Origin: Tricharina praecox
Lineage: Eukaryota
Length of the DNA: 50,772 nt
Direction: 5' to 3'
Assembly: GCF_024521635.1 (NCBI RefSeq)
Contig: NW_026250408.1
Coordinates: forward strand, 1,488,001 to 1,538,772
Made by a program: the position numbers and the translations under genes. Below are positions 21,775 to 44,364 of the stretch, piece after piece. Under the pieces are notes generated by a model that searched no databases, was not told where the DNA came from, and was given only the letters and a program-made list of their open reading frames with translations. Numbering within the stretch: the first letter of the stretch is position 1; each line of letters begins with the position of its first letter.

Positions 21775-22560
21775 ATATGTTGCATTACCTGTCGTTAATG
21801 GTGAATTGGCTTATCACGAAATACGATATTATACGCATTCATTCACTCATAGCCGCCTCCAAATCCAACAACACTACGCAAGTAAAGGCTTTTTTATAAC
21901 GGAGGTTTTCTCGCAGATTCCAATCTTTTTTTCCCCTTTTGATTTGTGGCGAAGTGGTGGCGCCTTTTGAAGAGACTTTGTTGCGCAAGGGTGATACCCT
22001 GACCGGCGAGCGGATGTCGATGTATGGGCAGGTATGTAAAATGATGGGGGCGATGACGGTGCCCCCCGTATTTATGTACTCTGCTGCGGGGGAAGCGGGG
22101 TAAACTGGGATGCGGTAGGTACCTAGGTGGGAGACAATGTGAACGACAATCGATCATACACCGTATCCTATCAACAGTGAAGTTCGACACCAAGGATATG
22201 TGGGAGGTGGCTGGATATCCGGAGCTTCGTGAATAACTTCCCAAGCTGAGTGACTTGCTCCTCCGAGTCGCCAGGCCAGTGCCATGTCTGTCGCATCAAT
22301 AACAACGCACCCCATACGCAACATTCGAAGCGCTATAACTGAGGCACACCTGCCTATTGACCCCTTTCCCCGCGAGCTCGAAGATCAAATACTGGTATGT
22401 GCTGTCCTGTGCGGGCGATCCAAGGGTAATGACCCGGTACCGGCGAACATGGCTATCAGCCGGTTCGCAGCGCGGGAGGGGGAGTCTTACCGATTATGCT
22501 ACTCCAAATTACCACTCCTATATAGTCCTGTCTGTGGCCCATTTAACGGACTGGATGTCG

Positions 22561-22613
22561 AGAGAGAGATCTTCAGTTTATCTCGCATGCAGCCTATCTA
22601 GACCATGGCGAAC
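22561..22613 (+). repeat. Left arm of a 53-bp inverted repeat flanking GTPase copy 1
   Basis: agagagagatcttcagtttatctcgcatgcagcctatctagaccatggcgaac matches the reverse complement of 24646-24698 at 49 of 53 positions. Confidence 0.85.
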
Positions 22614-22973
22614 AGACTATGTGTCGCCTCGAGCCCTGCACGTGATGATATAGATATATGGTGACTGCTCATGTGATTAATCATAAATCAGCACTCGAGC
22701 GGTTCATAAAGGCCCAAACTCGACTGTGCATATGCACATGCAACAAGGATGTGCAAGCGGTCGCCGGTGGCCCAGTGGCAGGCGGGACGCCACCTGGTGT
22801 ATGATACATCGTCACCGAGCCCCCCGCTTCACCGTACAACTATACTCAGCACTGTCGTCGACACCCTTATCAAGCAATCAAACATCCTCTTATCTCCGAC
22901 TCTAAACGCTCGTTCGCATTCCGCTTCTACCACAGCCTATTATCGCTGCCAGGCTTCCTGATCCATCGCGACA

Positions 22974-24457
22974 ATGGGCAACTCAGCGTCCGCTGTGGCG
23001 GACACCGCGCAGCGCGTTCGTACTGCCGTGGCTATACTAGGTCTGTCGCCGGTAGCTTCCCGAATCCCGATTTCTCTGTGCTTCGGCGGCGGGGAAGTTG
23101 AGTTCATGAGTCCCCAACCAAGCCCGCGACTCCGCGAGATCGTATGGTTCCCTGTACTGATTGACGTCCCTACCTAGCAAAACTGCCTCTGCCGGCGGCG
23201 ACTCGCATTCCAATAATCGCGGGGATATGTGCAGGCGCGGTTCTGGTGACCGTCGTCGAAGTCTTTCGGAAACCACCCAAGCCGGAAAATCCTACTGTGG
23301 AGGCCATCCAGGCCTACCTCGCGGGTGAGGAAATGCGACTTCTCGTATCGGAGGATGAACTATGGCCTGAAAAAGAGAGTGGACACAAAGGTAATGGTGG
23401 GCGCTCTGGGAAAGGTCAAAGGATGAAGGGCAAAAACAAACGCACGATACAAGAGGAATGTGATGAGATCCTGGAACACATCCGGGTGCAGGAGGAAGCG
23501 GCTGAGTCGCAACGCAAAGCGGACGAAGTGAGACAGGAACTCGAAGAGACCAGGCACAACCTCAAGAACGGAATTCAACCGGTGGTCTGGCCGACGAAGC
23601 AGGAATTCGAAGCTGCTAAGGTCAGAGTCGAGTACCAAAGAGACCTCTTACACTTCGCCATCAGCGGCCCATCCGGCTCGGGGAAGAGCTCTCTCATCAA
23701 CGCATTTCGAGGGCTGAAGACCAAAAGTCAGGAAGCTGCGCCAGTGGGAGCTGTTGAAACGACAACCACCATCACTCGATACCCGGATGCGCGCCAGGAG
23801 ACGGAGTATCGGCGGTTCGTGTGGTACGATGTTCCGGGTGCCGGCACCATCAATATACCAAGTTGGCAGTATTTCAACCAACAAGGACTGTTCATATTCG
23901 ACTTCATAATCCTGGTGTACGATGCTGTAAGTCATCTGCTCCAGTATATGGGCTTTCCTAACTCCTGCTAGCGTTTCACCGAGATCGATGCCGATATTCT
24001 CGAGAATTGCCACAGGTTCGACATTCCCGTGTTCATTGTCCGCTCCAAGGCCGATCAGCATATCGCCAACATGATGATCGAAGACGACGACCTTACCTAC
24101 ACGGAGGCACGCGATAGATACATCGCGGATACCCGACAGAACCTCGAATCCAACCTCAAGAAGCGCAACCTCTACGACGAAAACACTCGCTGCTACATAG
24201 TCTCAAGCACATGTTTGTATGATCAGACAAAGAGCACGGAGACAACAAACAACGTCCCGCCGGCCCGAAAGAGAAGCAAGGAAGTGTACATAGATGAGGA
24301 GCAATTGCTCGCCGATCTCCTCAAGACGGGGATTCAACGGCGATATAGCGAGTCCGCGCACATCACTATTAGATCATCCGCCACTACAATGGAAGAAATC
24401 GCTTCCTCCGTGCCGGAGGTTATGCACGGCGGGTCTTCACCTTCTACTGCAACGTGA
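22974..24457 (+). CDS. IRG/IIGP-like (interferon-inducible GTPase family) P-loop GTPase, copy 1, 3 exons, ~433 aa
   Basis: G1 GPSGSGKSSLINAFRG, switch I AAPVGAVETT, G3 WYDVPGAG and G4 VRSKAD. Introns at 23041-23177 (phase 1, restores the frame from MGNSAS) and 23927-23971 (after YDA). Confidence 0.88.
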
Positions 24458-24645
24458 TGCGATGGTTATGGTTTTATCGAGCTGCCGTATCTGGGATATT
24501 CATGACTTCTCAACTACTTATGATGTCTTTTTCTTTTCCTCTTATTTTCATGGTGTTCCTGGGTAGGATAGCAGGCCGGTTTATGCCCGACATGGCACCC
24601 TCAACACTTCCGGCCAGCCGCAGTGGGCAGGAGAAGAGTGCGACG

Positions 24646-24698
24646 GTTCGCCATTGTCTAGATAGGCTGCATGCAAAATAAATTGAAGATCTCTCTCT
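24646..24698 (-). repeat. Right arm of the 53-bp inverted repeat flanking GTPase copy 1
   Basis: Reverse complement of 22561-22613 with 4 mismatches. Confidence 0.85.
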
Positions 24699-26977
24699 AT
24701 CTCTCTCTCTCTCTTGCCCGTAGTACTTCCGGTGGTGTGACTGTACTCTCTCTTCAAGATTACCATCGCTTTGTGGATGACATTCTACCATATGACGGTC
24801 AATTGTTGCTTGAGTTTGTATGTAGTCCTCGCAGCAGGAGATTCGTATATTTGGAAGCCAGGCCAGCCGGTGGGGTTGCACCCGAGGTCTGTGAACTCGA
24901 GGGAGAATGAATTTTCGTTGCTCTTAAGGTGCCGAGTGACCGAGTCTGACCAAAGATCGGGCCGAAACCATGAATTCATGGCCCCTATCCCACTGAACTG
25001 TCACCGGCAGAGCCAACGTGGTGGTTCAGTGAAGTTTACCGGTGCATCTACACCCTTATTTATACTACTATGGTGTGTTCCTACTCCACAGACAGTGACA
25101 GACGTCGCCACGCGAGCAATACCTTCAAGCGACGAAATCGCAGCATTATACGGCCTAGCCACCTGATATCACATGCCTAGGTAGCCAGTAGCCAGTGCCC
25201 AATGATCAATCGAATGTCAGCACTGCAGGGATTCATAGTGATCTTGCTAACCTGATGATTGATCAGAAATCAAACAACTGGATCCCAATACCCAAGCGAG
25301 CAATAGTGATTCGCGCTGACACCCACTCAATTGCCATCACTCATTTACCCCCAGACTGAAACTTCACGAATCAAAGCGAGCCCTTGGAAGCTCCAAGCTC
25401 ACAAACTGAGTCTGCAACAACTGTTCGCACAATAGGTACTCGCATCAGGTCCCCAGAAGCCAAATTGCTATTTCATCGTTTCACGACGGCTCACTCGCGT
25501 CTCGCCACATCACCGCATCAACACATGCAGCGAAGACACTGTTGGATGGCATGGCTGGCGCTGCAGCTAGAATGAGCGTGACAGCTGCGTGTGTTTATCT
25601 ACTTGTGCTTTCTGCGGTGCTTCTCTACCTCTATGTAATTTCGTTGGTGCACTCGAAGAGGAGCTGGGCGGAGAGTAAAGAAGCCACACCTTGAACCGGT
25701 AGGAAATGGCATTTGTACACTACCCTGCCATGATCTACCAAGGTCGAATGACCTATATGGTGATTAAACCAAGAGAAATAGATGGCGTGTTTGAAACGGA
25801 AAGGAAGTATGCACCACTTTACCGCATGCAGCGGCAATCCAATAGGTAGCCAAGCGCTCGGACACGAACCTTGACATGAAGCTGGTGCAGTGGTGGACTC
25901 GTAACTGATATCGTCCCACTTCCCCGCCCCGCCGCCGCAGTAATTCTCCCAAACGCCGCCCTCGGGCCTTGGTGACTTGTCCAATCTCACATTTGCCTAC
26001 GATATAATACCCGGGACCGGCTTAATTATCTGCAGGACTGCTATTAACTTCCTCTGACCGACCGCACAGACAGGCGATTTCCGCTGCGGCCAATCATCGC
26101 GCCGTGCTGTGGTCTTGCGGATAAACATCAGTTGCCACTTGCGGACTTTCTCTGGGCCCAGCGGTCTTCAGCCGGTGCCATGTCACGTGACCGTAGGTTT
26201 TCGGTGGATTGGCCGTGCGATCCCATCCGAGTATTCTACATACCGGTGAGTATGATACGAATTTCTCCCCCGCTGAGACTGAAGCGCAAGTTCTCGACTC
26301 TGGGGGTTGGATTACCCCAGCGGCCCAGCCCGTCGATAAGTTTCAGCCTCCGATTCCAGCCTTCCGGCTGCCAGCGAGAATTTTCTTCGCAATTATTGCA
26401 CCTCGCATATGCACACGCATGCACGTGCGATGTCGACGATTGGGCGCGCGGCAACCAGCGGAAATGCTGGGTCGCACGGACGGGCCACTAACAACACACA
26501 TTCAGGCCCTTCGACAGGGGCTTCGATGCTTCTTACTGGCACTCGCTTGTCCACAAATAAGCTGCGCTCCTGCTGTATAGGGCATTTATACGCAGCCACA
26601 ACAATCAACAGCTTGCATGATCTGATGGTTCTGTAGGGCCTGCAGCAGCGGGAAGAGCCGCTCCCTTGTGACGGGATGGATCGATGGAAGGATGGCGGGT
26701 GTATTTATTGGGGAGTGGTGGTGCGCGCTGGCCACCTCCCTTTTTTCTTACGCTTTCGAAGCCTTCTGGAATCGTTCACTCTTCCATCGTCAGTCTTGAT
26801 CTTGCCGGCCTTCTACGCCTGCGTCCATTCTTTTGCCCGAATCAGTATCAGTATCAGTAATCCGACGGAACACCGGAAACTATATTCTCACCAACCTGTC
26901 CCTCGGATCACCGGAAAAACCATATTCTCACCAAAATCCCTCGAAACGAACAGTATTATACATACTAAAAGCCTACA

Positions 26978-27811
26978 ATGCGCTCGTTCGCCCTATTCTC
27001 TCTGCTGTGCGCCGTAGCAGCCGCCACCGTCGTTGAAGGACCACCGGACGCCGCGATAATATCGGTTGCGGAGGCAGTAGTTGTTCCTCCCCCGAACAAT
27101 GCGATCGTCGATATCGCTGCGGCCTACGCCACCACGACTCTCGCGGGCTACGCATCAGCAGTAGAAACACCACTGTCGACGCCAATCCCGACGTCGAGCA
27201 CATACACGGGCTCGGATCTGCCCAAACCCGAGACATCGGTCCCGGTCACGGTCTACAAGACTGTATCGGTTTCCGTGAGCTACACCACCACACTCACTGC
27301 CTCCGCGAACCCCTCCTCGCAAGCAACATATCCCGCGAGCGATATTCCCTCGTTGACGTGGTACAGCGCCGGCCCCTCGGCGTACCTCAACTCGACCACG
27401 CACTCCAACAGCACACTCTCTCACTCGCAGAGCGCCACCAAAACGTCGTTCAAGCCCGCGTCGCAGTCCAAGTCCAAGTCGGCAAAGCCCACCACCTTCT
27501 CGACACGCACCTACACCAGCGCGCACTACAACTCAACAGTGTCCTTCAGCACCCCCTCCTTTTCTCCCACGCCTTCCGTGCCGGCCGAGACCCCGTCAGC
27601 CTCAGCCTCAGCGACTGTCTACCCCGGCGGCCTCAGCGACCCCACGCTCGACACCCCCTGCTACAATTCCAGCTGCGCCAATCCCAGCAGCGACATGAAC
27701 TTCCATGTCACCATCACACCGGCCGAGCAGGATAGTGGAGCGGGCACCCTAGGCGCCAGCCTACTGTGTGGCATGGCAGCGGTTCTTCTCGGACTTGCGG
27801 TCGGATTGTAG
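26978..27811 (+). CDS. Secreted Ser/Thr-rich, probably GPI-anchored cell-surface protein
   Basis: Signal peptide MRSFALFSLLCAVAAA, Ser/Thr/Pro-rich body with NxS/T sequons, omega-like DSGAG and hydrophobic tail LGASLLCGMAAVLLGLAVGL. Confidence 0.85.
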   Translation: MRSFALFSLLCAVAAATVVEGPPDAAIISVAEAVVVPPPNNAIVDIAAAYATTTLAGYASAVETPLSTPIPTSSTYTGSDLPKPETSVPVTVYKTVSVSVSYTTTLTASANPSSQATYPASDIPSLTWYSAGPSAYLNSTTHSNSTLSHSQSATKTSFKPASQSKSKSAKPTTFSTRTYTSAHYNSTVSFSTPSFSPTPSVPAETPSASASATVYPGGLSDPTLDTPCYNSSCANPSSDMNFHVTITPAEQDSGAGTLGASLLCGMAAVLLGLAVGL

Positions 27812-28659
27812 CGATAACTAGAATTGGGGGGTTTGCGGCTTGTTTATTTATCATACTGTAATCAGCGGGTCTAGCTGCCGGTCGGTCGGTTGGGTTGGGT
27901 TGGGGGAGTTATCTACATATAATTTTCGTACTTTGTTACATAAGTACCTACATAGAAGTTGCGCTGTCTGTCCGTCTGTCAAGTATCTGTCTGTCCGTCT
28001 TTCCGTCTTTCGGTCGTTGTGTTGTTAATAATAATGTGTATGTGTCTACGTACTCGGCCGGTTGGTTTTGCGGGCGTGGGGCTCAGCAACAGTGCAACAC
28101 TCACTAGCGGCCGTGTGGGGCCGCTCGAAACGGTGTTACGGCGATTCGTCTAACCGGCACGGCACGGATTCCGGCAACTGGCCATTTCACCATTCACGGT
28201 AGAAATCTCTCGGTGGTGATACGTACTTGCATTTTACATACTTGCAAATACACCACAGAGAATAAAGTCACCAAAGAAAGATATACAGGCCGTAACGTAC
28301 GGTATCGTACCGACGAAATATGAGGAAAAGAATGGAAGACATCACAGGTATCGTATAGGTGCTCGGCGGTGTAACGGTTCGAGCTGAGCAACATGCTGAC
28401 AGACAGACAGACAGACAGTCTATTCCACCTTCGAAACCGCGACGAACAAACGAACAAACGCCCGAGTCCAAGCATCGACATGCGCGCCTACGAGGCTACG
28501 ACGACGTCTTTCGCACTGCCGCGGTCACAGCCGACCAACCCTCGAATCCACACCACGCATTCAAAGCCAAAATAGCAAGCAATGGCTCCCAAGCTCTTCG
28601 TGGAAGCTGCTCGAGAGTCGAGTCCTGCACTGCCGCGGTCAAAGCCGCCAGGTTCATCT

Positions 28660-30255
28660 CGAAGCCGCGTTGCCGCTTGGTCGTACATAGCAAGGACGAG
28701 ATTCGAGACCGCCGACTCAGCAGGTGACACCGTGAACTTCGTCCATGCAATCCGAGGGATCCTTTCCCGGCAGCAACACCGCGCCGTCGGGGGTGATCTC
28801 GACTCGGTGGGTTTGCCGTGAGCTCGGAATCGTGTCCGATCCGATGTGGCAGCGAGAATAGGTAGGCGTTGTCGACATTCCGTTTCGTGAGGTTGCTTGC
28901 GAGGCTTTATGAAAGGTGACGGTTATTTTGATATTCGTGAGCAAAAATAGTATAAGAAAGTCCTCTATGGGGGCTTCGATGTAGTCGTCGTCTTCGCCGG
29001 CTGCTAAGTACGTAAAGCTGCGGTTTCTCATCATCATGCTCTGGATGTGCTGTTCGGCATCGGTGCGGACAAGAAACGCATGAACTTTGAGCCTGCTGCA
29101 GAGGTAGGCGTTAGAGACTTAGAGTACGCTGCACCAATATCGTAGCGGGTCACTTATAGATTCATATAGTGGAAGGATGGAATCAAAGAAGAAGACGTAC
29201 TAGAATAGACCTTGCCGGTTGAAATAGGTAGTGCAAACCTGGTATATCGTAGGTGCCTGCATTCGCAATATCGTACCATGCACTCTGTTGCTAGGGCATC
29301 CCCTAGCGAGCATCGAGATATCGCGTGATGGCGGGTGACGATTCGGCAATATCTATTTCCGCTGCTTGAGAGCTCGTCTCCTCTCCTCTCCACCTTGCAA
29401 TACGTTGATCAAAAAGGTCTTCCCCAGTTGGCAGGACCGCTGATAGCGAAGTGTAACCGGTCATCACTATACGGTACGCGAGCCTGGTTTTGGCTCCCTC
29501 GTATTCGTTTGCCATCCGCCAAACGACCAGAAGAACTCCTTTTCCTAGGCCGATCCTGGTCTGTTCAAAGCGCTGCTGCTTTCTGGCTCCCTTCTTGACC
29601 TCCAGGAGTATCCTGCCCTGGGGCCTGCTCTCCCACTTTGTGCTGCCCGAGTTTCCGTTTGGCTTTGTCCACCAACCGCTCGCTCGCCTCTTCCTCCTGC
29701 CGAATAGCGGCCGCCACCGCACTTCGTGCCTGCGCCTGTATCCCCAGAGCCTCCGCAGCCTTCGGGCGTCGCCTAGTCATTGCTGCATTTCCAGCCCGAC
29801 TTCAGCTCCAGCCTCCAGCTTGATCGTCACTTCTAGCACGCCACTTCCGCGTGCATCTTCGCGCCTCTTCCATCTTACGAGCGGATCCGAATCTTTGTTT
29901 CCGTCGCCTCCTTCTTTCCTGACCGCTCGCACACAGATAATTTTCTGTTTCCTCGCGCCCAAGCCTCGTTTCATCCTCCCTCAAATCTCGATTGTTTTCA
30001 AGTGCGATGTGTCGTATGACTTTCCTCCTGACCAAGCTGCTACACACAGAGGCCGAGGACGTCCACACTGAGAGCCGGGCAACGAGACGTATAGAGCGAA
30101 AAGGGGTGCAATTTGCACTAGGTATGTCGTCCGAGCTGGTGTCATTCTCGATCACTCGCTCAATAGTGTTATTCATGTAATCGGGGTTGTCATCTGTCAC
30201 TCGGCGGATAGCGTTTGAGGACTCCGAAGATTTCATCCAATAGAAACCATCCATC
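28660..30255 (-). pseudogene. Decayed fourth IRG-like GTPase copy
   Basis: Frameshifted fragments are collinear with the intact paralogs: NPDYMNNTIE, coiled coil, RFEQTRIGLGKGVLLVVW...AKTRLAYR, HFAISGP / GKTFLIN, ITRYLDAR*, WYDIANAGT, YFNRQGLF, FFFDSILPLYES plus a mutated donor ATAAGT, AFLVRTDAEQHIQSMM, LASNLTKRN, SRCHI. Ends are approximate. Confidence 0.85.
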
Positions 30256-31179
30256 CAATGGACACCTTTCTTTGGAAAGCCCAGGCGGCGGACATGCAAC
30301 GATCCGGTTCTGCAGCGAGCGCAGCACCGAGACCGCAGTCGGGACAGTTGTATGTACAGTGCACTGATTGTCATGATCTGGGTACGGCCGGTAGGTTGCA
30401 TGCTATAAATGACGAACCGAAAAACCATCCGACGGATAGCTGCGTCGTGAGGGACGATAGAGCGGGGGTCTTGATCACGGCATGCAGGCTGCATTCCTCC
30501 ATCCCAGCTTGGCGACCGGCGACCAGCGGCTCTGCGCAGATCGTGTTCGCGGGTCGCGACGATTTCGCAAGCGCATACGTGAAGCGGGGTTCGGTACGTA
30601 TTATTGGTTCGAGTGCGGGCCTCGTGGTTAGGCTTACATGCTACAGGCTACAGCTGTTAGCTGACAGTCTGGGACTCGAGAGGAGAAGACAGTACGGCTG
30701 ATGAAGTACGGTACCTTTTCATTGTGTGATACGATACTCTGGTGGCCCCACGCCAGGAAGTCCTGCTGCCTGATCTACAGGTGGGTATGGCTGCCTAGGC
30801 CGTATAGCTTGCTGCAGAGTTGTCGCCAGTAAGAAGAAACGTAGTTATCTGTATGCGCCTGGGGATCCGGGATGGCCTTGGGTTTGGCCAGAGAGCGAAG
30901 ACTGGCCCGGTTCGCTAGATATCGAGACGACTGTCGCTCTAGCCATCGGGATTACCTCTTCTACCGAAACCCGCATAGGTATGTTCAAGCCTGACGAGCG
31001 ACCAACATCACAGTAAGCGGTGATAATTAAATAAACTATGGAATGTAAAATCAGTAGACATTGACTTAACCCGCATCCCGTACCGACCAACCACCATAGA
31101 CCATCAAAATATTAAAAATGATAACAGATCAAACTGATTCCCCAAATCCAAAGCCCCCAAAAATAGCAAGTCAAGAGAG

Positions 31180-32819
31180 CTATTTTACCGTAGAAGAACC
31201 CGAAGACGTTCCGAGCCCGAGCTTCGACACGGACGAGGCAAGCTCGCCAACTGCGGCGGTAGCTGCGGTGAGCGTCTGTCTGACAGCGACGTGCGAGCGC
31301 GAGTCCCTCGTCTTATTTGCGGAATGGTACCGGCGCTTGACGGCGGCGTCGAGCAGATCCACAAGCAGTTGTTCCTCGTCGATGTAGGCGTCCTGATTCT
31401 TCTTTCGTGCTGGCGGTTTGCCGGAGTCGTCAGCAGTTTCGGCAGCCTTGACCAAATCGTACAAACTGCTATTCGAGACAATATAGCAGCGCGTATTGAC
31501 GTCGTGGAGGTTGCGTTTCTTCAGGTTCGATGCGAGATTCTGGCGGGTTTCCTCGATGTATTTCTCGCGTGCTTCCAGGAATGTCAGGTCGTCGTCTTCG
31601 TATAGCATGTTTAGGATGTGCTGATTGGCCTTGGAGCGGACGATGAAGGCGGGAATCCGGAATCTGCGACAGTTTTCGAGGATGTCGGCGTCGATCTCGG
31701 TGAAACGCTGTAGGCAAGGGTTAGGACTCCGGACGACAGATAATGGAATAAGTAACTTACAGCATCGTATACCAGAATTATGAAGTCAAAGACAAATAGT
31801 CCTTGCTGGTTGAAGTACTGCCAACTGGGCATATCGATGGTGCCGGCCCCCGGAACATCGTACCATACGAACCGCTGGTATGGCATCTCCTGGCGAGCAT
31901 CCGGGTATCGCGTGATGGTGGTTGTCGTTTCGACGATTCCTACTGGTGCTGCGTCATGGCTCTTGGTCTTCAGACCTCGAAAGGCGTTGATCAGAGAACT
32001 CTTCCCCGAGCCGGAGGGCCCGCTGACGGCAAAGTGCAACATATCTTTTCGGTAACCGAATTTGACCTTGGCTTCGTTCAATTGCTGCCTCGTCGGCCAG
32101 ACCACCGGCTGAATTCCTTTCTTGAGGTTTTCTGTGGCCGCCTCAAGTTGCTCCTGCAGTACAGCTCTCTGCTCATCCTCCTGATGTCTCCTGGTCTCCT
32201 CCTTAAGCCTGAACTGCTCCTGTCTCCGAACGGCCTCGTTCTCTTTGCGTCGTGCCTCGGCCGCAACTGCCATCGCCTCCTTTCCCCGCTGGACAGAGGC
32301 CTCTTCCGCCGCTCGTGCGCGCTCATTTGCTTCCCGCGTCTCCACTACCATCGCCGCCACTGCATTCTCCATCCTCGCGACCTCCTCTTCCTTCATCTTA
32401 GCCGCCCCCTCTTGCGCCCTGATCTCGTCCTGCTGTTGCCTGATGCTTGCTGCAATCTCCTCCATCTCGCGAGTAACCCGATCCCGTTCCTCGCGCATCA
32501 TTCGCTCATGGTCGTCTCTCACTCTCTGATCTTCCTCGTCGCGCAAACGACGCTCTTCATCCTCGCGCCAGCGGCGCTCACGGTCTTCGTCGTCTTCCCT
32601 CCGCCGTCTCTCCTCGTGCTCCCTCATCCGACGGTCTTCCTCCTCATCACGCCGCAGCCGGTAGGCTTCTTCTACACGCTGCCGCCGCTCCTCGTCCTGG
32701 TGGTGGTGGTATGCTTCGATCGCGTTCACGGTCGGGTTCTGCGCGTCCGGTGTCCCAGTGAAGATCCCGGCGAATGCTCGGACGACCGCCGAAGCGACCG
32801 CGGATACTACACCGCCCAT
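31180..32819 (-). CDS. IRG/IIGP-like GTPase, copy 2, long coiled-coil N-terminus, ~528 aa
   Basis: MGGVVS start at 32819, an E/R-rich coiled coil, GPSGSGKS, AAPVGIVETT, WYDVPGAG and VRSKAN. The intron at 31760-31708 is in the same position as in copy 1. Probable 5'-UTR intron at 32924-32831. Confidence 0.92.
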
Positions 32820-34271
32820 CGATGATTGAACTGATAACGGCAGATAGGTTAGCGATACCGTGCCTGGGTGCACACCGCGGTGTGGTGCGGTGCCGGCTGT
32901 GTGGGCTGAAAGCGGGGGTCTTACGGTGGAGAGTCTTGGTGACGAAGTGATTGATTGCTATGATCTGAGTGTTTATTTGTTTGTTTGCCTGGCGGATGGA
33001 TTGCGTCGATGAGGGGATGTGCGGGATGAGTGGACGGCCAAGTACTAAGTACATAATCTGCTACTCATCCACTGGTCCCACCGCAAGAACAACAAAGTGG
33101 GGTCATAACATCTGCTTTCGGCGACCGGCGACAGTATGTAGACCATGTTTGCATTCCTCCTGCAGGTAAATCTGCACGGGGATACCTAAAGGGTCTTTCT
33201 TATTGGCGCGAGTGATGAGTTGTGCATACAGATGGGCTAGGCACCTTTGTTTCAGGCTTCGTGTTTGCGGGTGATGGAAGTTAGAAGGGCTGGGGCGGCT
33301 GCTGGAATATTGAGACGGGAGTGAGGCTTAAGGCAATGCGCAGCCAATGAATTGGCTACCGAACTCCACTGTCGTAGTCCCCGTGATGGCCGTCCGCAGC
33401 GAATTAAATTCTAGCCTTCTAGATGGCTTTGGTGACTTGGAAAAGGGCCGTCGGTCTGTGGACTCTGGACAGGGAGAATTGTGCTCCGATTCAAATTTTA
33501 GTCATCACAGTAAGTTACTAAGAGCTGTCTAGATACGGAGCGGGACTTTATCTAAATCTACACTTTTCTCGGCAGCGATCCGCGTGAGGTTTGTCGACCG
33601 GAAATGATCTAGCCTCTAGACCAGCCGCCGCAATTTTTTGGCCGAAACTCGAAAGGATCCCACCGCAGGCCTGCAGAACTTCATGTATCACCATCATCAT
33701 CATCACTATCATCATCACTATCATCATCGGACGTACCATTCCAGCGGAGACGTACAGGGCAGTGCGTAATACTTTGAATGAAGCTGCAGCAGACTTCCGC
33801 ACCGCACTTCTCCACTCGCTTGCAAGTTGCTTCCCCTCTCCAAATGTGATAGTATTATGCACACTTGCCCATTGCGCCTCAGCGTTCACTTCACCACACT
33901 GGGCCGCACAGGGAACATGCGGAATGGGCCGGCGTGAACAGTTGCATTCATAGACGACGATAATTTTGTTTTCGAGAGACTACCTAGAAGATGAGAAGGC
34001 TTGAATGAACACCGGTAATTGAAAGAACCACCTCACGTACGTAAGTAGGTAGTGATCAGCATCTCTCCCCCGAAGATATCACATTAAAATAACAGAAGAA
34101 AGCAAGTCTTCCGGACTCCACAACTGGATACAGTCATACCTGCTTAGCGATTTAGTATCTTGGAATTTGGAACGTCCCCAAGAACGACCGAGCCAAAACC
34201 TCGAACCAACTAGTCCCTCCCACGGCGGTAGCAGTGGCGGTTTCCCCTTTTGCCTCGACATGGGCAGTAGT

Positions 34272-35711
34272 CTAGGTGGCGGAAGTGTAACGCCGTTTGA
34301 CAGCCGTGTCGAGGATATCGACGAGTAACTGCTCCTCATCGATGTACTCATCCGTCCTCGTCTTTCTTGCCGATGCCCCTGCGTCGCCGGTAGCCCTTGC
34401 ACTTCTGATCAGGTCGTAAAGAGTGTTGCTTGAGACGATGTAGCAGCGGGTGTTGGCGTCACTGAGTTGGCGTTTCTCGAGGTTGGATGCGAGGTTCTGT
34501 CTGGTCTCCTTGATGAACATCTCGCGTGCTTCGGCGAGCTCAAGGTCATCGTCTTCGTCCATCATGTTGCGGATGTGCTGGTTGGCCTTGGAGCGGACAA
34601 TGAATGCCGGAATGTTGAACCTGCGGCAGTTTTCGAGGATGTCGGCGTCGATTTGAGTGAACCGCTGTACGGGCGAGGGGTTAGAAAAGAAAGAAAAAAA
34701 GTGGTTGGATGTGACGAAACAGTGACTTACAGCATCGTACACCAGGATAATGAAGTCAAAGATGAAGAGTCCTTGCGTGTTGAAGTACTGCCAACTTGGT
34801 ATATTGATGGTGCCGGCACCCGGCACATCGTACCATACGAACCGCTGGTATGGCATCTCTTGGCGATTGTCGGGGTATCTTGTGATGATGGAGGTGGTTT
34901 CGACGATTCCCACTGGCGCTGCATGGGGGCTCTTCTTGGTCAGGCCTCGGAATGCGTTGATCAGAGAACTCTTCCCCGAGCCGGACGGGCCGCTGACGGC
35001 AAAGTGTAGACGGTCGTCCCGGTATCCAAGCCTGATCTTGGCGTCCTCCAACTCCTTCTTCGTCGGCCAAACCTCCGGCTGAATCCCATTTTTGAGGTTT
35101 TCTTTGGTCTCTTCAAACCTCCTCTTCAATTCTTTCGCTTCGCGCTTCGCCTTGGCCGCGGCAACCTTTGAATTTTCCTGCTGCTTGAAAGCAGCCTCTT
35201 CCGCAGCGTGCGCCCGCTCCTGAGCTTCCTGTGCCTGCCTTTCCTTCCCCTGAACCTCCTCTTCCGCAGCCTGTGCCCGCTCTTTGGCCGCCAGCATCTC
35301 CTTCTCGTTCCGCCTAACGTTCTCTTCCATCCTCGCCAACTCTGCCGTGTGTGCTCTCTCCCGGGCCTCCCGGGCCTCCCGGACCTCCGTTTCTATTCTT
35401 CGACTCTCCTCTTCCGCCGCCTGCACTCGCTCCCGAGCAGCACGCGTGTCCCTCTCGCTCTGTCGAGCATCCGCTTCCATCTTCGCCAACCGCTCTTCCA
35501 TCATCCGGACCGCAGCCAGATTCTCTTTGTGCTGCTCCTGCCGACGACGAGCATTCGACTCGCAACTCTCGCGATCTTCTTCTTGGATTCTCGCTTGAAT
35601 CTGCCCCATCGTTTGGTTCTGTGAGTCCGGTGGCTTCATGAAGAGGCTCGCGACGGCCTGGACGATAGGTGGAATGGCAATCCTTGCGATGGCAGTTACG
35701 AAGGCCCACAT
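34272..35711 (-). CDS. IRG/IIGP-like GTPase, copy 3, ~457 aa
   Basis: Same motifs (GPSGSGKS, GIVETT, WYDVPGAG, VRSKAN). A 66-nt in-frame intron at 34730-34665 occupies the conserved position. Probable 5'-UTR intron at 35779-35717. Confidence 0.92.
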   Translation of the reverse strand: MWAFVTAIARIAIPPIVQAVASLFMKPPDSQNQTMGQIQARIQEEDRESCESNARRRQEQHKENLAAVRMMEERLAKMEADARQSERDTRAARERVQAAEEESRRIETEVREAREARERAHTAELARMEENVRRNEKEMLAAKERAQAAEEEVQGKERQAQEAQERAHAAEEAAFKQQENSKVAAAKAKREAKELKRRFEETKENLKNGIQPEVWPTKKELEDAKIRLGYRDDRLHFAVSGPSGSGKSSLINAFRGLTKKSPHAAPVGIVETTSIITRYPDNRQEMPYQRFVWYDVPGAGTINIPSWQYFNTQGLFIFDFIILVYDAVSHCFVTSNHFFSFFSNPSPVQRFTQIDADILENCRRFNIPAFIVRSKANQHIRNMMDEDDDLELAEAREMFIKETRQNLASNLEKRQLSDANTRCYIVSSNTLYDLIRSARATGDAGASARKTRTDEYIDEEQLLVDILDTAVKRRYTSAT

Positions 35712-36959
35712 CGGAACTAGAGAGCGGGTGGTTGGTCAGCGACACAGAATAAGTCGGCAGTGAGCCCGCGAGGCCTTACCGTCGTTCTTAGAGAAGTGAA
35801 TTTGTTGATGGTTTGGTTGTTCGATGGCTGGGTTGCGTCAAAGAAGGAGGTGTGGGATGGGACCATGCGGCGTATCGGCTCCTTTATGGTTCACTCCCCG
35901 CCGTGCGAGATCGAAAGCTGAGCGACTCTGTAATCGAAGAATGTAAAGTACCAGTCATTGAATCCGCGGACAGCTTTCCGCCCCTCCCGTTTTAGCGGCC
36001 GTAGGCAGCTGGCTGTGGAACATGTCCTAACTCCTGACCACTACTAACCTCGTATTGTCGATGGCGGGCCTATTGAGATCAGCCAACTGTGCAAACATGC
36101 ATGTGTCGGCCACGTCTTCCTGCATACCCGACGTAAATGGTTCGACGTTTCTCATTTGCTCCAGTGCTTGCAGGGCGAGGATTTCCGAGATCCGGCTTCG
36201 AGCCTCATCTCTGCAAGTGGGGAGAGGACGGCGGTGCGATTGATGAATCGGATGGTATGTGTAGGAGGTATGATAGGAGAGGTCTGGAGTAGCGGTAGGG
36301 TAGCTGTGCAAGTCTTGTTTATTGGCTTAGACGACACCGGCAGTGTCGAGTCGAGGCGTGCAGTGGCCCGTCCGCCGCTCTTTTTGCTCGAGTTCCACAA
36401 GGAGTACTACACACAAGCCCAACTTGCCCCCCGCACTCGGCAGCCAAATCATCCATTCCCCCAATTCTTCTCTTACATGTGGAGTTCCAGAGAATCAGAT
36501 CTCAAGGAGGTGTGATGTACCAACTACCAATCCGTTTATCGGGCGTTCGTGGTTGGAATTATTTCACAACTTGACCAAGCCTGGTGTTTTGGTCGATCAG
36601 CCTTAGAAAGTACGATTAGTGGCGCCGAGAGCGACTATACCCAGCATCGCAAGGGGATGGGTGATGTCCGACGGAATGACAGCCTGAAGATCTGGGGTGA
36701 AGAAAGGTTAGCGAGAGACGCTCCTCTTTGATGGATGCCGTAAGTTGCACTCGACATCCCTAACCTCATTTCTGCTTCCGCCTTGGCCACCCCACAAACA
36801 CCATTCTTCGCCTCATCCGAGCCTCTCGCACGTGCCCACATTCTCGACTCTCGAGTTCTCTCCATAAGTAGGAAGAAGTGCTGAAATAGCATCGAGAGAG
36901 TGATGAATGTGTTTTTTTTGCTCGATTGTGGCCCCGCCGGAGCCTGGCTGCGAGCCTAC

Positions 36960-39054: not shown

Positions 39055-39369
39055 GGTCTAGTCCGGTCGGCGAAAATTGGCCGACTCGTTCTATTTAATC
39101 CGCGGGGGGCCGCACTTTTCTGGAAGTCTGTATCGTTCATCATCTCATTTCCTTTGCTTGTTACTTTTCTCAGTCTAGGACCGCTTGCTTTCATCAAGTG
39201 TGCCTTTCCCATCATTGGGTCTTACTACAACGCAATCAACTTCTCATTTCTTCCCCAACAAACATCAATCGATGATTCCTATACCACTACACCATGTATG
39301 ACTCATGTTTCCCCCAACAACGATCGCTCGAGTTCCTAAACAGTCTGATGGGACTCCGCTGTTGTGTAA

Positions 39370-41190
39370 GTACCACAATCAAATTGAGAAGTCCTCACCA
39401 TCAACTAACATTCCTCTAGTAGGCTCAATCGAGATTGAACCTCCTCAACCAAAGAACCACAGGCTACTGGGACTCAGCTGTCGTGAAGGTACGGTTTACC
39501 ACAATCGAATCGAGATGTCTTCACCATCAACTAACATACCTACTAGAAGGCTCAATCGAAACCGAACCACCTCAACTGAAGACCGTAAGATCTCTGTCCC
39601 ATATACCGGCCGAGGCTCAGGGTCGCCAAGCTGACGATATCCTCCGCAGATTAGCAAGAAAGCACCTTCTCATCCACCATCACCACCTGCTCATCCACCC
39701 TCCACCTTCACACCCACCATCCTGAATATCTGTTGTACCAATGGCCCGAAGAGGAAGCTATCGTTCAACCAGATCGTCGTTCGCGGCCGACACGCTTCGG
39801 CACGACAGATGCCCGGTCATTGAGGCTCTCGACAGCGCTCTTGAGCACTTCCCAGATATGCCCCTCTAACCAATCGACTGCACCGTTTGGCGTGATCCGG
39901 CGGGCGATAGGCCTGTTTCTGCCAGGATAGACGTTGGCTGGCGTAGCAATTCCAAGGTGTGCTTCCTAGAGATAGTTGCCAGGGCCGCGACGACGGTGCT
40001 GGGGGAGTACAGCCCGGGCTTATTCAAGGTCGGCGTCGCCATTAATGATTACAAGGGCGGGGAGGAGCCTGCCCAGACGGTGGAGCCGGAGGATCAGAAG
40101 GACCAGGTGCAAGAAGCTCTGGCGACACATACTTTGCGACATTCGGAAGCAGACGTGGGACCTTGGCCTCGGCCGGGGATACCACTTGTCGGTTCAGCTG
40201 AACCGAATCGACGAGGATTCGGCCCGACACGCTTCGGCACGACAGATGCTCTATTATGCACGTTCGCCCCATGCCAGGCCCGCCCCGCTTCCCGTCACCG
40301 CTACTCACCAGCCGGACTTCATCCCACCACCTACCTCTACCCCCGCTATTTCCCACCCCTCTTCCCGTCCCCGCTACTCACCAGCCGGATTCAATCCTGC
40401 CGCCTACATACCGATCCCGCTATTTCCTGCAAGCACCTGAGCGGGTACAGTCCGGCTCGAGCAGAGGCTACCCGCACCTAGCGAGAAGGAGGCCATTGGG
40501 AAGAGGCGCACCAACTTGATCAACATACTGTTGAAGTTGGTTGTTTATTCTTTCCATGGCCGGGAAAAGGACTTTCAGCCGAGCGGGATTATGATTCCCG
40601 TCAAGGCGCTGTCGGAGACGGTTGATCCCGCGGAGGACTTGCAGGAGATTGCAAGGGAGTTGTCTGCAAAGTGGGAGGACTTGTAGGAGAAGGCAAGGGA
40701 GTTGTGTGCAAAGTGGGAGGAGGGGGATTTTGCGCAGAGGCTGCTCACTACCAGCCCCGCGCCAACCCCGAACCCAGAGGATGAGGAGGAAGCAGTTGAT
40801 GAGGAAGCGGTGGTTGAGCAGTTCACTGAGCCCCCTGCCCACGGGGATGAGGAAGAAGCGGTTGATGAGGAGTTCATGGGGTACGCTACGCACGAGGATG
40901 AGAAGGAGGAGAACGATGTGGAGACGGTTGATCTCGGGGAGGGGTTTGCAGGAGATGGCAAGGGAGTTGTCTACAAAGTGGGAGGAGGGGGATTTGGCGC
41001 GGAGGCTGCTCAGTTCCAGCCCCGCGCCAACTCCGGAGCCAGAGGATGAGGAGAAAGCTGGGGAATGCACCGAGCCTCCAGCTCACGGGGATGGGGAAGA
41101 AGCGGTTGATGAGGAGTTGATGGAGTACGCTAGTCACGAGGATGAGAAGGAGGAGAACAACCCACCATCGTGGATGATCAGAGAGTGATG
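39370..41190 (+). repeat. Patchwork of short direct and tandem duplications with a disrupted Glu-rich ORF
   Basis: caccatcaactaacat..cta..aggctcaatcga occurs twice (~39397, ~39522); ccgacacgcttcggcacgacagatgc twice (~39786, ~40224); ccgctactcaccagccgga twice (~40297, ~40371). A ~300-bp unit encoding ETVD..E.LQE.ARELS.KWEEGD.A.RLL..SPAPTP.PEDEE...HEDEKEEN is duplicated at ~40615-41160 with a stop and a frameshift. Confidence 0.75.
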
Positions 41191-41886: not shown

Positions 41887-42708
41887 CTACAATTCGTTTG
41901 CACGAAACACATCATCCCGCCGGCCGCCCCCCTCTGCACACACCTTCTCGACGGCCTCCCAGGTGACATCGAAATTGAAGAACGTTCCGGGGAAAATTTC
42001 GGGCTGGTACGTGAAATGCCACCATTCCGTCTCGGTCGCTACGAACCCCACACTCTCCAACGTCCGCCTCAGCAAATCCCTATTGACCCTCTGCAACCCC
42101 ACGATCCGCTCGTCGTCCGGCCAGCTCAGCCTATCAAAGCAGTCGAATCCCGTCCCCATATCCACCGAGTTATCGGGAAACCTCTGCTCCTTCGGCGCAG
42201 TGCAGTGCAGCAGCTTCTCTCCGGGGATGAACTCGCGCGTCGGAACGACAGGTAGAGCGACAATGGTGATGTCCACCGTGCTGCCGCGGCTGTGTCCCGA
42301 CGTTGGCGTCATATACGTGTCTGCAAAGAGCTGGGCCTTGTCGACTCGCGGATAGAACTCGTCGCGCATCAGCGTGTCGGAGAGGTTCGCGGCCCATGAA
42401 ACGAATGCGTCCACTGCACGCTGGGGCCGGTAGCAGTCGTAGACTTTCAGAGAGTAGCCCTGCGGAACGAGCAGGCGTTGCGCGGCGGAGAGTGCATGTG
42501 CGGCCGGGAGCGTGAGGAGGCAGACCGGGTCTACGACGCCGGGAATCGGATGGCCGATGAAATTGTGCGGTGTGGTGTAGCGGATTTCGCGGAGGATCGT
42601 GCGGTCGATGCAGGAGAGTTCGACGAAAGCGGAGGGAAGCTTAGAAGAGAAGGCAGAAGTGATGAGGATAACGAGAACGGTGATGAGAAGCCGAGGAAGC
42701 ATCGTCAT
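41887..42708 (-). CDS. Secreted D-alanyl-D-alanine dipeptidase (VanX/DdpX, peptidase M15D family), intronless, ~273 aa
   Basis: Signal peptide MTMLPRLLITVLVILITSAFS, then IRYTTPHNFIG, YDCYRPQRAV, SGHSRGSTVD (Zn ligands His and Asp), DMGTGFDCFD and EWWHF (catalytic Glu, Zn-binding His). Confidence 0.93.
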   Translation of the reverse strand: MTMLPRLLITVLVILITSAFSSKLPSAFVELSCIDRTILREIRYTTPHNFIGHPIPGVVDPVCLLTLPAAHALSAAQRLLVPQGYSLKVYDCYRPQRAVDAFVSWAANLSDTLMRDEFYPRVDKAQLFADTYMTPTSGHSRGSTVDITIVALPVVPTREFIPGEKLLHCTAPKEQRFPDNSVDMGTGFDCFDRLSWPDDERIVGLQRVNRDLLRRTLESVGFVATETEWWHFTYQPEIFPGTFFNFDVTWEAVEKVCAEGGGRRDDVFRANEL

Positions 42709-44364
42709 GTTGGTTGTGAGTACGAGAGTTAAAGGCACCGGTAGGCTGGGTTGAATGGAGGGACGACTCGGAGGTGTTGGAAAAGCTCGGCAGAGCTCAA
42801 TTTCTCGGCATTCTATAGGTCTCCGTGGTAACACGACATCAGCTCATGGTTGTCTCGTTGCTGACGCAGCAACCGCGGATTAGGACGGGCTGGTCGTGTT
42901 GGCCGTGTTTCCTTGGAATCGTCTATCCGATCCAATGCTGGCGGCGTCACCCAGCACTCACTCATCGTCTGAAAGTTATGATGAAATCAAGTGCATTTTA
43001 CGGTCTTGCTAGTACAGTCCCTCCGGCAGTGAGATCATCATCTCAGCTGTAGCCTTGGTAGTATTTTCTTCTCACGACGTGGACGAGGAATCGATGGTGA
43101 CAGATACAGGTATCTTGATTCTTGATAGCTGTTGAAAGTAGTCTTGAAACGGAAGGATTGTGAAGAGTTGAAGGAGTTGCGACGATGTTGCTTCTAAACG
43201 ATTCGGTGGAATTCTAATCGGCCAGCCACATAATTCGACTCCAAAATTTCAGAAAGTTGCAGTCCGTGGCGGCAGCAAGTTCTTGGACGGTCTGACTACA
43301 CACGTCCATTCAATCCAATGGAGTGGACTATCTGGAGCTCTGGGTGTTTGAGAAACGCGATGGAAAAGTGTAGGTTTTTGAGGCTGGGAGTGGACAAGGC
43401 GATTGATGCTCGAGACTCGCGGTAAGCATTCGTGGCGATACATACTGCCGTTGCTTACGAAGCCATGGTATGTCTGTCATTGCATGGGACCTATCTAGAT
43501 CATGGCCTTATGTACCCGTGCACCCCCGCGTTTCTACGCCACTGTCCAGCCCCACTTTCATCGAGCAGCCCGATGTGGCTTTACCCACCCTCCGCCCTGG
43601 TATGTCCCATCGGTAGAAAGAGAGCGCACCAAAGAATTGACACAAGGAAAAGACTCCCACGTCCGCTGCAACAACTCGTCCCCTCCTTCGGCTTGCCGCC
43701 CTTTTTCACAACTCGTCCACTCCGTCGACTCGCCCCTACTCAGCCGCGAGTTCCTCATTCGCCTCGCCGCCTGTTGGCTCTTCAGAATGGGACGCTATGA
43801 ATGGGGTTGCAGTGGGAAGGAATGATGGAGGAAACCCTGGCTTCTCAACCTCAGCAACCCGAGTCCTCCTTGAGGCACCACAGCTCCTCCCTCTCTTCCT
43901 GCTATATGAGCTCTCACTCCGACACCTCGCTTGCTACATCTTTCTCAGCAACCTCCAGGATCCATCTACTCACATCAACGGAGGAGAGGAGATCTAGGAT
44001 GGCCTGGAGGCCGGCTAAACCGCTCGTCTGTGAAGAGGTATCGGATTTTGAAGCGGTCCTTGCCCCTCCTTTTCCACTTCCGGACCTGTGCCCATGGTAC
44101 CTTTTGCTGACTTTTCCATCCCCGACAAGACTTGAAAAGGTGCTACCGGGTCTGGGTCAGAGAGAAGGTCCCGAGCCTCGAGTATCGCTTCATGTACATA
44201 CTACATACATTGAGGAGTACTGGACATCTGGCTCAAAAGCATGCCTGTCGGGTGGATCTTAGGTAGTTGGCATCGGCTTATGCCGACGGAGATGTGATCA
44301 TGAAGGTCTCCCGGGCCACGGTGGCTTTGAATCGACTCGGGGATACCTTGGCTTTCAGTACTAT

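Follow-up and report, generated by a model that had tools for sequence, protein, structure and literature searches.

Lineage-specific tandem GTPases with IRG-class G domains in the fungus Tricharina praecox

A tandem family of GTPase genes, specific to its lineage, is expressed in Tricharina praecox (Pezizales, Pyronemataceae), and the G domains of these proteins are of the immunity-related GTPase (IRG) class. In the window, by which we mean the whole stretch of 50,772 nucleotides that was analysed, three paralogs are intact and a fourth copy has decayed to a pseudogene that is still transcribed; all lie together at positions 22974–35711, which confirms the gene cluster that had been observed there. 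The explanation that fits best overall, to which we give a probability of roughly one half, is an IRG-class tandem family of membrane-tethered, assembling GTPases with an accessory and probably conflict-related function.

Copy 1 lies on the forward strand at 22974–24457 (exons 22974–23040, 23178–23926 and 23972–24457; 433 amino acids), and copies 2 and 3 lie on the reverse strand, at 31180–32819 (exons 32819–31761 and 31707–31180; 528 amino acids) and 34272–35711 (exons 35711–34731 and 34664–34272; 457 amino acids), respectively. The earlier note on this DNA had placed three intact genes here, and this is borne out by gene models that are spliced in RNA and match the NCBI proteins P0014, P0002 and P0001 (copies 1, 2 and 3) letter by letter, all of which already had the name “interferon-inducible GTPase-domain-containing protein”. 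Each of the three has an intron (GTAAGT...CTAAC...AG) between VYDA and RFT, and RNA contigs from two runs (X1 and X2, from two studies) splice exactly at this site in every one (joints 23926/23972, 31707/31761 and 34664/34731), so that the same-codon intron (YDA/RFT) described earlier for the intact copies is real. The first-intron joint of copy 1 (23040/23178) is also seen in both runs, within a 4-base joint ambiguity. Correctly spliced contigs cover all three genes in the runs from both studies, and in the intergenic region 24785–26612 the contig depth is 0 to 2.9. The three genes are thus expressed; the contigs bear on transcription, not on induction, and the expression may be simply constitutive. 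They further reveal introns in the 5′ UTRs of copies 2 (32831–32924, reverse strand) and 3 (35717–35779, reverse strand), the latter copy also having an out-of-frame upstream ORF that overlaps its start codon. No shared 8- to 10-mers hinting at co-regulation were found in the three upstream regions. A separate observation concerns copy 1, the sole copy in inverted orientation, which is flanked by a 53-bp inverted repeat (22561–22613 paired with 24698–24646, 92% over 53 nt by self-BLAST; right arm 24646–24698), where an “opposite strands” joint (22603->24654) appears in the RNA contigs.

The motifs GPSGSGKS, G(A/I)VETT and DVPGAG occur in all three copies and align to Irga6 and Irgb10, and the proposal that such motifs place the proteins in the IRG/IIGP class holds for the G domain. 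When the three are compared to Pfam, IIGP (PF05049; cutoff 24) is the best family, with 87.3, 90.5 and 92.4 bits (the last for copy 1), followed by MMR_HSR1 at 28–35 bits. A phmmer search of the PDB returned 13 matches, all of them IRGs (E 1.8e-17 to 1.3e-12), and among the Foldseek matches listed IRG entries occupy ranks 1 to 38 throughout, with EngB and mitofusin from rank 39. The comparison to Irga6 structures that had been suggested gives the same answer, since IRGs are the best fold matches in VIA alignments (Z 18–21, rmsd ~2 Å, 176–190 residues aligned), compared to Z ~16 for mitofusin (194–216 residues), ~15 for EngB and 14.2 for BDLP (207 residues). The switch-I Glu, rightly described as conserved, lines up with the switch-I Glu of Irga6; across 68 relatives it is retained in 90% or more, and E271, T272 and T273 are each either invariant or conserved to at least 90%.

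It might be argued that all this reflects generic P-loop similarity, the true class being EngB/YsxC, dynamin/mitofusin, septin or AIG1, as there are weak secondary matches beside MMR_HSR1. For instance, copy 1 reaches 28.4 bits against NCBIfam TIGR03598 (EngB/YsxC; cutoff 124.45) and 21.9 bits (E 2e-5, coiled coil and P-loop only) against LeoBC (Eleos) in the PADLOC LeoA/LeoBC library, which has no curated cutoff; copy 3 matches neither, and EngB and mitofusin do appear in Foldseek from rank 39. We nevertheless consider this very improbable: IIGP leads the other Pfam families by more than 50 bits, every PDB sequence match is an IRG, IRGs are ahead in VIA by 4–5 Z units at ~2 Å, and septin and AIG1 give no Pfam match at E<=0.01 in any of the three proteins, nor does Dynamin_N at this threshold. 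Since Pfam, PDB, Foldseek and VIA all favour IRGs, no other GTPase class is a better match, and that the G domain is of the IRG class is close to certain.

The likeness to IRGs is limited to the G domain, and the rest of the protein lies outside the IRG/IIGP class. The Pfam match spans profile positions 30–214 of 375, with the helical domain (~215–375) unmatched, the VIA alignments stop at about residue 257 of Irga6, and after the G domain there remain only 50–100 residues. The fungal proteins lack the helical domain, which in IRGs is composed of helices from the N-terminus and a C-terminal helical region of ~150 residues. They have a four-part layout, made up of an N-terminal anchor-like segment, a Glu/Arg/Ala-rich coiled coil of 110–190 residues whose length differs greatly from copy to copy, the G domain and a short C-terminal helix. 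Copy 1 begins with MGNSAS and a 20-residue hydrophobic stretch and has the shortest coiled coil, copy 2 begins with MGGVVS and has the longest, Glu/Arg-rich one, and copy 3 has a hydrophobic N-terminus without Gly2; copies 1 and 2 thus carry the MGxxxS myristoylation consensus, and all three copies a hydrophobic N-terminal helix. In an AF2 model (pLDDT 82.8, pTM 0.70) helices at 33–135 and 158–207 precede the G domain at 218–420, the tip of the coiled-coil hairpin (residues 128–162) being of low confidence. Among 113 Met-started relatives, 49 start with MG (40 of those with MGxxxS), and in 57 a 15-residue window close to the N-terminus is hydrophobic. Passages of Bekpen et al. 2005 (PMC1297648) report an MGxxxS signal in 11 mouse IRGs and myristoylation of Irga6, and myristoylation and membrane binding of the fungal proteins are predicted from the motif. 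In such a design the N-terminus would tether the protein to an intracellular membrane, nucleotide-dependent contacts between G domains would drive assembly there, as in IRGs and other dynamin-like GTPases, and the coiled coil would serve as a stalk or spacer. A membrane-tethered, assembling GTPase strikes us as somewhat better than an even bet. There may also be a looser, stalk-like resemblance to the dynamin superfamily: in mitofusin and BDLP, the second-best structural class, long helices from both termini likewise flank the G domain, though the identity is only 13–15%, Pfam Dynamin_N does not match and the scores are clearly below those of IRGs.

The Asp of the G4 motif reads the guanine base, and here the copies part. 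The VR(S/T)KxD motif, attributed earlier to the family, stands for copy 1, which has VRSKAD with a canonical SKAD at 24044–24055, and fails for copies 2 and 3, both of which have VRSKAN (SKAN at 31635–31624 and 34592–34581); in the phmmer alignment to the PDB, Asn355 of copy 3 lies opposite the Asp of the Irga6 TKVD. When we considered 120 relatives, 96 had a detectable G4, ending in D (63 cases), N (15), R (8), K (6) or another residue (4), meaning that the Asp is lost in 33 of the 96, or about one third, with the losses confined to particular clades of the tree. Asn is common to most of the Pyronemataceae clade holding copies 2 and 3, and as it is also found in relatives from Trichophaea, Wilcoxina and Sphaerosporella it is old and maintained. 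Copy 1 retains every guanine-nucleotide motif, and the Asn of copies 2 and 3 may alter or weaken guanine specificity. Animal IRGs also have irregular members, namely the GMS subgroup (GxxxxGMS) and the IRGQ “quasi-GTPases”, and altered members have been proposed or are known to regulate the canonical ones (in passages of Bekpen et al. 2005, PMC1297648). The fungal family similarly mixes canonical and altered nucleotide sites, though its change is at G4 (Asp to Asn/Arg/Lys) whereas that in animals is at the P-loop Lys. By analogy with GKS versus GMS/IRGQ, there may be an effector/regulator split among the copies, with a putative regulatory role for those with altered sites. Its repeated loss at G4 poses a well-defined question for biochemistry, one open to direct testing, namely what becomes of the nucleotide site without the Asp.

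Self-BLAST among the three genes gives matches of 803–877 nt at 74–77% identity, with E values (1e-151 to 1e-174) that put the likeness beyond chance. The G domains had been called nearly identical, which goes too far: they share 78.6–81.1% over 201 amino acids and 85–89% over a 121-residue core. Within the G domain dN is 0.11–0.14 against a dS of 0.70–0.83, a ratio of ~0.16, and the N-terminal part shows no sign of positive selection (pN 0.36–0.51, below pS 0.65–0.78), in a comparison limited by saturation at synonymous sites and by a poor alignment. A further G-domain remnant lies at ~28880–29620 on the reverse strand, identified by tblastn, DNA identity and an RNA joint. It consists of fragments 27–37% identical spread over three frames, and its DNA is 67–70% identical to the intact G domains over 255–323 nt. 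A 1-nt deletion splits the P-loop, the sequence has gained three insertions (5, 5 and 4 nt) and carries TAG stops in frame, and no intact ORF emerges even if the splices seen in RNA are applied, all in agreement with its description as a pseudogene. It is transcribed and spliced (joint 29095/29201), and of 437 positions at which the intact copies all agree it deviates at 139; the pseudogene is old. One could suppose from this copy, and from the missing G4 Asp of two others, that the whole cluster is in decay and has no function left. Selection and expression both contradict that idea, which is hardly credible to us, since three genes are open, transcribed and correctly spliced, and the G4 Asn is old and maintained. 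The ratio of ~0.16 together with correctly spliced RNA over all three genes argues that function is retained.

The family comprises 295 clusters at 50% identity (E<=1e-30). Among the best 120 of 631 matches, from which the patchy distribution is judged, named relatives come from Pyronemataceae and Agaricomycetes only, with none from the classical model fungi. In the tree the three copies form one Tricharina-specific clade (SH-aLRT 98), nested within a clade of Pyronemataceae (96), and with three genes and a pseudogene within 13 kb this fits the earlier suggestion of tandem birth and death. Multiple paralogs are found in Phlegmacium, Astraeus, Suillus, Pisolithus and Rhodofomes, probably on one contig in each, as their contigs are of equal length. 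From this evolutionary behaviour only, we infer an accessory, fast-turnover function that is most likely conflict-related, unlike core housekeeping. The function could be to fend off microbes or viruses inside the hyphae, or to take part in non-self reactions; we hold a conflict or defence role tentatively, at a little under even odds.

How far the animal parallel extends can be judged by comparison to the mouse IRGs (Irga6/IIGP1, Irgb6 and Irgb10; PF05049). The G domains agree (E ~1e-17, Z 18–21, ~25% identity), as do G1 GxxxxGKS, the switch-I GxVE(T/V)T with its Glu, a residue that is small or hydrophobic where Ras has Gln61 (DVPGAG), a G4 of (S/T)KxD type in copy 1, the MGxxxS N-terminus of copies 1 and 2, and the tandem clusters that include pseudogenes. 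The fungal proteins differ in having a coiled coil of 110–190 residues ahead of the G domain in place of any IRG helical domain, and in the Asn that replaces the G4 Asp in copies 2 and 3. To our knowledge fungi have no interferon system. Another relation is seen, for example, in a 367-residue cyanobacterial IIGP GTPase (ORF L001:1660-2763 of a Synechococcales MAG; Pfam IIGP 139 bits), which shares 34% identity with copy 1 over 167 amino acids (E 1e-24) as well as the motifs GPSGSGKSSLINA and GVVETT. It differs in being bacterial, with an N-terminal G domain, a canonical NKLD G4, no coiled coil and another C-terminal region, its profile match running up to position 256.

Mouse IRGs disrupt the Toxoplasma vacuole, and a cell-autonomous immune or allorecognition system in the fungus, as the earlier note proposed, would likewise be induced on challenge and would coat and disrupt a foreign or altered membrane. 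The IRG-class G domain, the MGxxxS signal, the tandem cluster with its pseudogene and species-specific clade, the recurrence of multi-copy contigs in other fungi, and the presence of canonical and non-canonical members reminiscent of GKS and GMS are all consistent with this. However, both RNA data sets with transcripts of the genes come from possibly unchallenged cultures, the animal helical domain is missing, the upstream regions have no common 8- to 10-mers and a signal of positive selection was not found. No NLR, HET or other immune-type genes are among the neighbours of the cluster, where we found GatB, a P450, a kinase-like ORF, a peptidase M15, DUF6594 and a fungal rhodopsin domain. Moreover, walled hyphae do not phagocytose, so that the pathogen vacuole, the animal target, has no obvious fungal counterpart. 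We regard such a system as doubtful.

The expression in both data sets and the strong purifying selection on the G domain would suit a non-immune GTPase of membranes or organelles, with a part in the dynamics of the ER, lipid droplets, vesicles or septal pores or serving as a GTP-switched coiled-coil tether, and with paralogs specialised by tissue or stage. Membrane-fusion GTPases are structurally next best (mitofusin Z ~16, BDLP Z 14.2), and a mouse IRG relative, GM4951, is reported to act in metabolism, being tied to fatty liver disease (PMC9288484). Yet the narrow spread of named relatives, as judged from the best 120 of 631 matches, the lineage-dependent copy number with species-specific clades, the decay of one copy and the loss of the G4 Asp in 33 of 96 members make the family unlike a typical core housekeeping enzyme, and we regard this role as unlikely. 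The accessory, probably conflict-related family of tethered GTPases is still the better account.

IRGs are textbook vertebrate defence, and here G domains clearly of the IRG class occur in a fungus, within proteins built to another design and in a family so far known in databases under automatic names only; a full-text literature search found no paper on fungal IRGs. Unambiguous IRG homologs were said to be absent outside vertebrates in passages of a 2005 survey (PMC1297648). In its most specific form, which is quite unlikely, the proposal would be a membrane-directed, cell-autonomous defence built on N-myristoylated, coiled-coil-stalked GTPases under tandem birth and death, with canonical effectors such as copy 1 regulated by altered-site partners such as copies 2 and 3 (G4 Asn/Arg/Lys), much as in GKS/GMS. 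If true, IRG-type immunity would predate the split of fungi and animals or have been recruited independently from a bacterial-type ancestor, and a non-NLR arm would be added to fungal innate immunity. Should a defence or non-self role be true, the family would provide a second effector class beside NLR-linked cell-death domains, and would make it possible to test how IRG-type GTPases act without the animal helical domain.

The cluster is a lineage-specific tandem family that is expressed, is kept by selection and has a G domain of the immunity-related GTPase (IRG) class. From stop-to-stop open reading frames and intron borders we modelled its three intact paralogs as copy 1 (plus strand, exons 22974–23040, 23178–23926 and 23972–24457; 433 aa), copy 2 (minus strand, exons 32819–31761 and 31707–31180; 528 aa) and copy 3 (minus strand, exons 35711–34731 and 34664–34272; 457 aa), in each of which an intron of the form GTAAGT...CTAAC...AG separates VYDA from RFT. 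The models show no difference from the deposited proteins P0014, P0002 and P0001, respectively, of the pyronemataceous cup fungus Tricharina praecox, and all three copies are already annotated automatically in NCBI, under the name "interferon-inducible GTPase-domain-containing protein".

Full-length Pfam scans match the three proteins to the IRG profile IIGP (PF05049) at 87–92 bits, compared to a cutoff of 24, with the match limited to profile positions 30–214 of 375. All 13 matches of phmmer against PDB sequences are IRGs (Irgb10, Irga6, Irgb6 and GM4951; E-values 1.8e-17 to 1.3e-12), and the alignment covers the entire G domain. With copy 3 modelled in AlphaFold2 from 68 relatives (pLDDT 82.8, pTM 0.70), ranks 1–38 among the Foldseek rows listed are IRG entries, followed by EngB and mitofusin; VIA-align superposes it on IRGs with Z of 18–21 (rmsd about 2 Å over 176–190 residues), above mitofusin (about 16) and EngB (about 15). 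Together the profile, PDB-sequence and fold matches place the G domain in the IRG class, and the two comparisons proposed in the earlier note, with the Pfam IIGP profile and with Irga6-type structures, both came out in favour of it. Membership in another GTPase class is effectively excluded. PADLOC and NCBIfam profiles gave nothing beyond weak generic GTPase matches. The structural alignments to IRGs stop at about residue 257 of Irga6, and the IRG helical domain is missing from these proteins, so the assignment to the IRG/IIGP class originally made for the proteins holds for the G domain but not for the helical domain.

Outside the G domain, the model of copy 3 consists of a short N-terminal helix, long helices at residues 33–135 and 158–207 joined by a loop of low model confidence, the G domain (218–420) and a C-terminal helix (437–452). 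The long-helix region is rich in Glu, Arg and Ala and is 110 residues long in copy 1, 191 in copy 2 and 165 in copy 3. A homodimer prediction for copy 3 returned "no answer" with a score of 0.00, which weighs neither way. The proteins begin with MGNSAS (copy 1), MGGVVS (copy 2) and MWAFVT (copy 3), and all have a hydrophobic window close to the N-terminus. Among the relatives, taken as the best 120 of 631 protein matches, 113 start with Met; 49 of these 113 begin with MG, 40 with MGxxxS, and 57 have an N-terminal hydrophobic window. Bekpen et al. (PMC1297648) describe MGxxxS as the myristoylation signal of 11 mouse IRGs, and Irga6 as myristoylated and held to the membrane via this motif. The N-terminus of the fungal proteins probably tethers them to a membrane, with assembly driven by the nucleotide state and the coiled coil serving as a stalk.

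At the nucleotide site, all three copies keep intact G1, switch I and G3 motifs. The G4 motif is SKAD in copy 1 and SKAN in copies 2 and 3, where the Asn aligns to the Asp of TKVD in Irga6; the VR(S/T)KxD motif that had been attributed to the family is therefore present in copy 1 only. A G4 is recognisable in 96 of the best 120 of 631 relatives, ending in Asp (63), Asn (15), Arg (8), Lys (6) or another residue (4). In the tree the losses of Asp are clade-wise, lying in a Pyronemataceae clade and a Polyporales/Russulales clade, and Asp is retained in Boletales and Phlegmacium. In Ras-like GTPases the G4 Asp recognises guanine, and its replacement by Asn shifts the preference towards xanthine nucleotides. 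From this role we infer that guanine binding is altered or weakened in copies 2 and 3, and Asp-type and Asn-type copies may divide function between them.

The family is wide. Searched with copy 1, a set of 1.84 billion representatives yields 2051 proteins at E≤1e-3, of which 1144 pass E≤1e-10 and 295 pass E≤1e-30. A 367-aa IIGP protein from a Synechococcales MAG (139 bits) is 34% identical to copy 1 across 167 aa, and an 883-aa protein containing three full-length IIGP units reaches 30–33%, so the fungal proteins are roughly equidistant from a bacterial and a full-length IIGP member. Nearest neighbours in the ESM Atlas are IIGP clusters of Basidiomycota, Chordata, Rotifera and Bacteria. Some long relatives, several of them from Agaricomycetes, carry two tandem IIGP G domains (P0003, P0004, P0006, P0007, P0012, P0020 and P0026) and resemble the mouse tandem IRGs, though these may be fused gene models; the same applies to a protein kinase domain ahead of IIGP in P0188 and a partial DEAD helicase behind it in P0144.

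A quick IQ-TREE tree of 95 fungal rows with a cyanobacterial outgroup (25 incomplete rows of the 120 left out) groups copies 1–3 in one clade (SH-aLRT 98), which includes one long-branch metagenome row and is nested in a Pyronemataceae clade (96) with Trichophaea, Wilcoxina and Sphaerosporella. The deep forks between the Pyronemataceae and Agaricomycete clades are unresolved, and the outgroup branch is very long (6.3). A possible horizontal transfer from Agaricomycetes to Pyronemataceae is not supported by this tree, where the Pyronemataceae clade stands apart amid those unresolved forks. Several other species among the best 120 of 631 matches have paralogs whose contigs are equal in length, which probably places them on one contig.

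Within the cluster, the G domains of copies 1–3 are 78.6–81.1% identical across 201 aa (85–89% in the core), with dN of 0.11–0.14 and dS of 0.70–0.83. Synonymous sites are saturated in the N- and C-terminal parts, and the coiled coil aligns poorly. The similarity between copies does not extend beyond the coding sequence of the G domain and the C-proximal part, and they are thus not recent segmental duplicates; that origin is rejected, given likeness over only about 800–880 nt of coding sequence at 74–77%, none in the flanks, and a G-domain dS of 0.7–0.8.

Two sequencing runs from two studies, X1 and X2, have their type marked "RNA?" and depth unsuited to ranking genes; we treated them as RNA because their contigs skip introns and intergenic DNA is uncovered. 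Contigs on 22500–36200 splice out exactly the predicted introns 23926|23972, 31707|31761 and 34664|34731, and a further joint in copy 1, 23036|23174, equals 23040|23178 within a 4-base ambiguity. They also reveal 5′UTR introns in copy 2 (32830|32925) and copy 3 (35716|35780). Depth is 0 to 2.9 over the intergenic stretch 24785–26612, and this together with the intron skipping shows that the runs are RNA and that all three copies are transcribed. In the leader of copy 3 (35780–35870, minus strand), a 35-codon out-of-frame upstream ORF overlaps the start codon once the 5′UTR intron is removed.

The fourth copy is a pseudogene at about 29620–28880 on the minus strand, where tblastn finds pieces 27–37% identical in three frames and the DNA is 67–70% identical to the G domains across 255–323 nt. 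One nucleotide is missing from its P-loop, three insertions (5, 5 and 4 nt) and TAG stops in frame interrupt it further, and it deviates at 139 of the 437 sites invariant among intact copies. RIP as its origin is rejected: transitions account for 74 of the 139 changes, and C:G>T:A (43) versus T:A>C:G (31) is without RIP-like bias. A single contig runs from copy 2 exon 2 into this region with joints 30647|30715 and 29095|29201, and an intact GTPase frame is absent from the spliced transcript. Between copy 2 and the pseudogene lies a transcribed 281-aa open frame (29802–30647, minus strand) with no Pfam match, linked to copy 2 exon 2 via the intron 30647|30715.

Copy 1, the sole copy in opposite orientation, lies between the arms of a 53-bp inverted repeat (22561–22613 and 24698–24646; 92% identical, preceded by (GA)n), at which the RNA contigs show a strand-switch joint. 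The repeat may be the footprint of an inversion or what remains of a mobile element. The 700-nt upstream regions of copies 1–3 share no word of 8, 9 or 10 nt (shuffled means 0.4, 0.04 and 0). The neighbours are ordinary genes: GatB, P450, a kinase-like ORF, peptidase M15, DUF6594 and a fungal rhodopsin domain. The M15 ORF (41887–42843, minus strand; 100 bits) has a domain of the VanX-type D-Ala-D-Ala dipeptidases, enzymes of bacterial cell-wall metabolism, here within a fungal genome. The DUF6594 domain is C-terminal in a 924-aa open frame (4100–6874, minus strand) otherwise lacking Pfam matches. A Ser/Thr/Ala-rich ORF (26969–27811, plus strand; 280 aa) has hydrophobic termini and no Pfam match, and is spanned by RNA contigs at 26767–28182. 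Local tandem duplications occur at 40614–41158 and 39340–39582 (for instance, 40681–40914 versus 40946–41158, 81% identical).

The genes and their family are already in databases under automatic names only. Full-text searches of the papers themselves found no study of fungal IRG/IIGP-type proteins; the only fungal-looking match (10.1101/580746) concerns mouse IIGP1 in macrophages. That the cluster is a functionless relic is effectively excluded. The strongest rival is a membrane function unrelated to immunity. We favour an accessory role that is probably conflict-related, a reading drawn only from the family's evolutionary behaviour. The case currently rests on homology, and what distinguishes these proteins is an architecture of their own and a recurrent change at G4.
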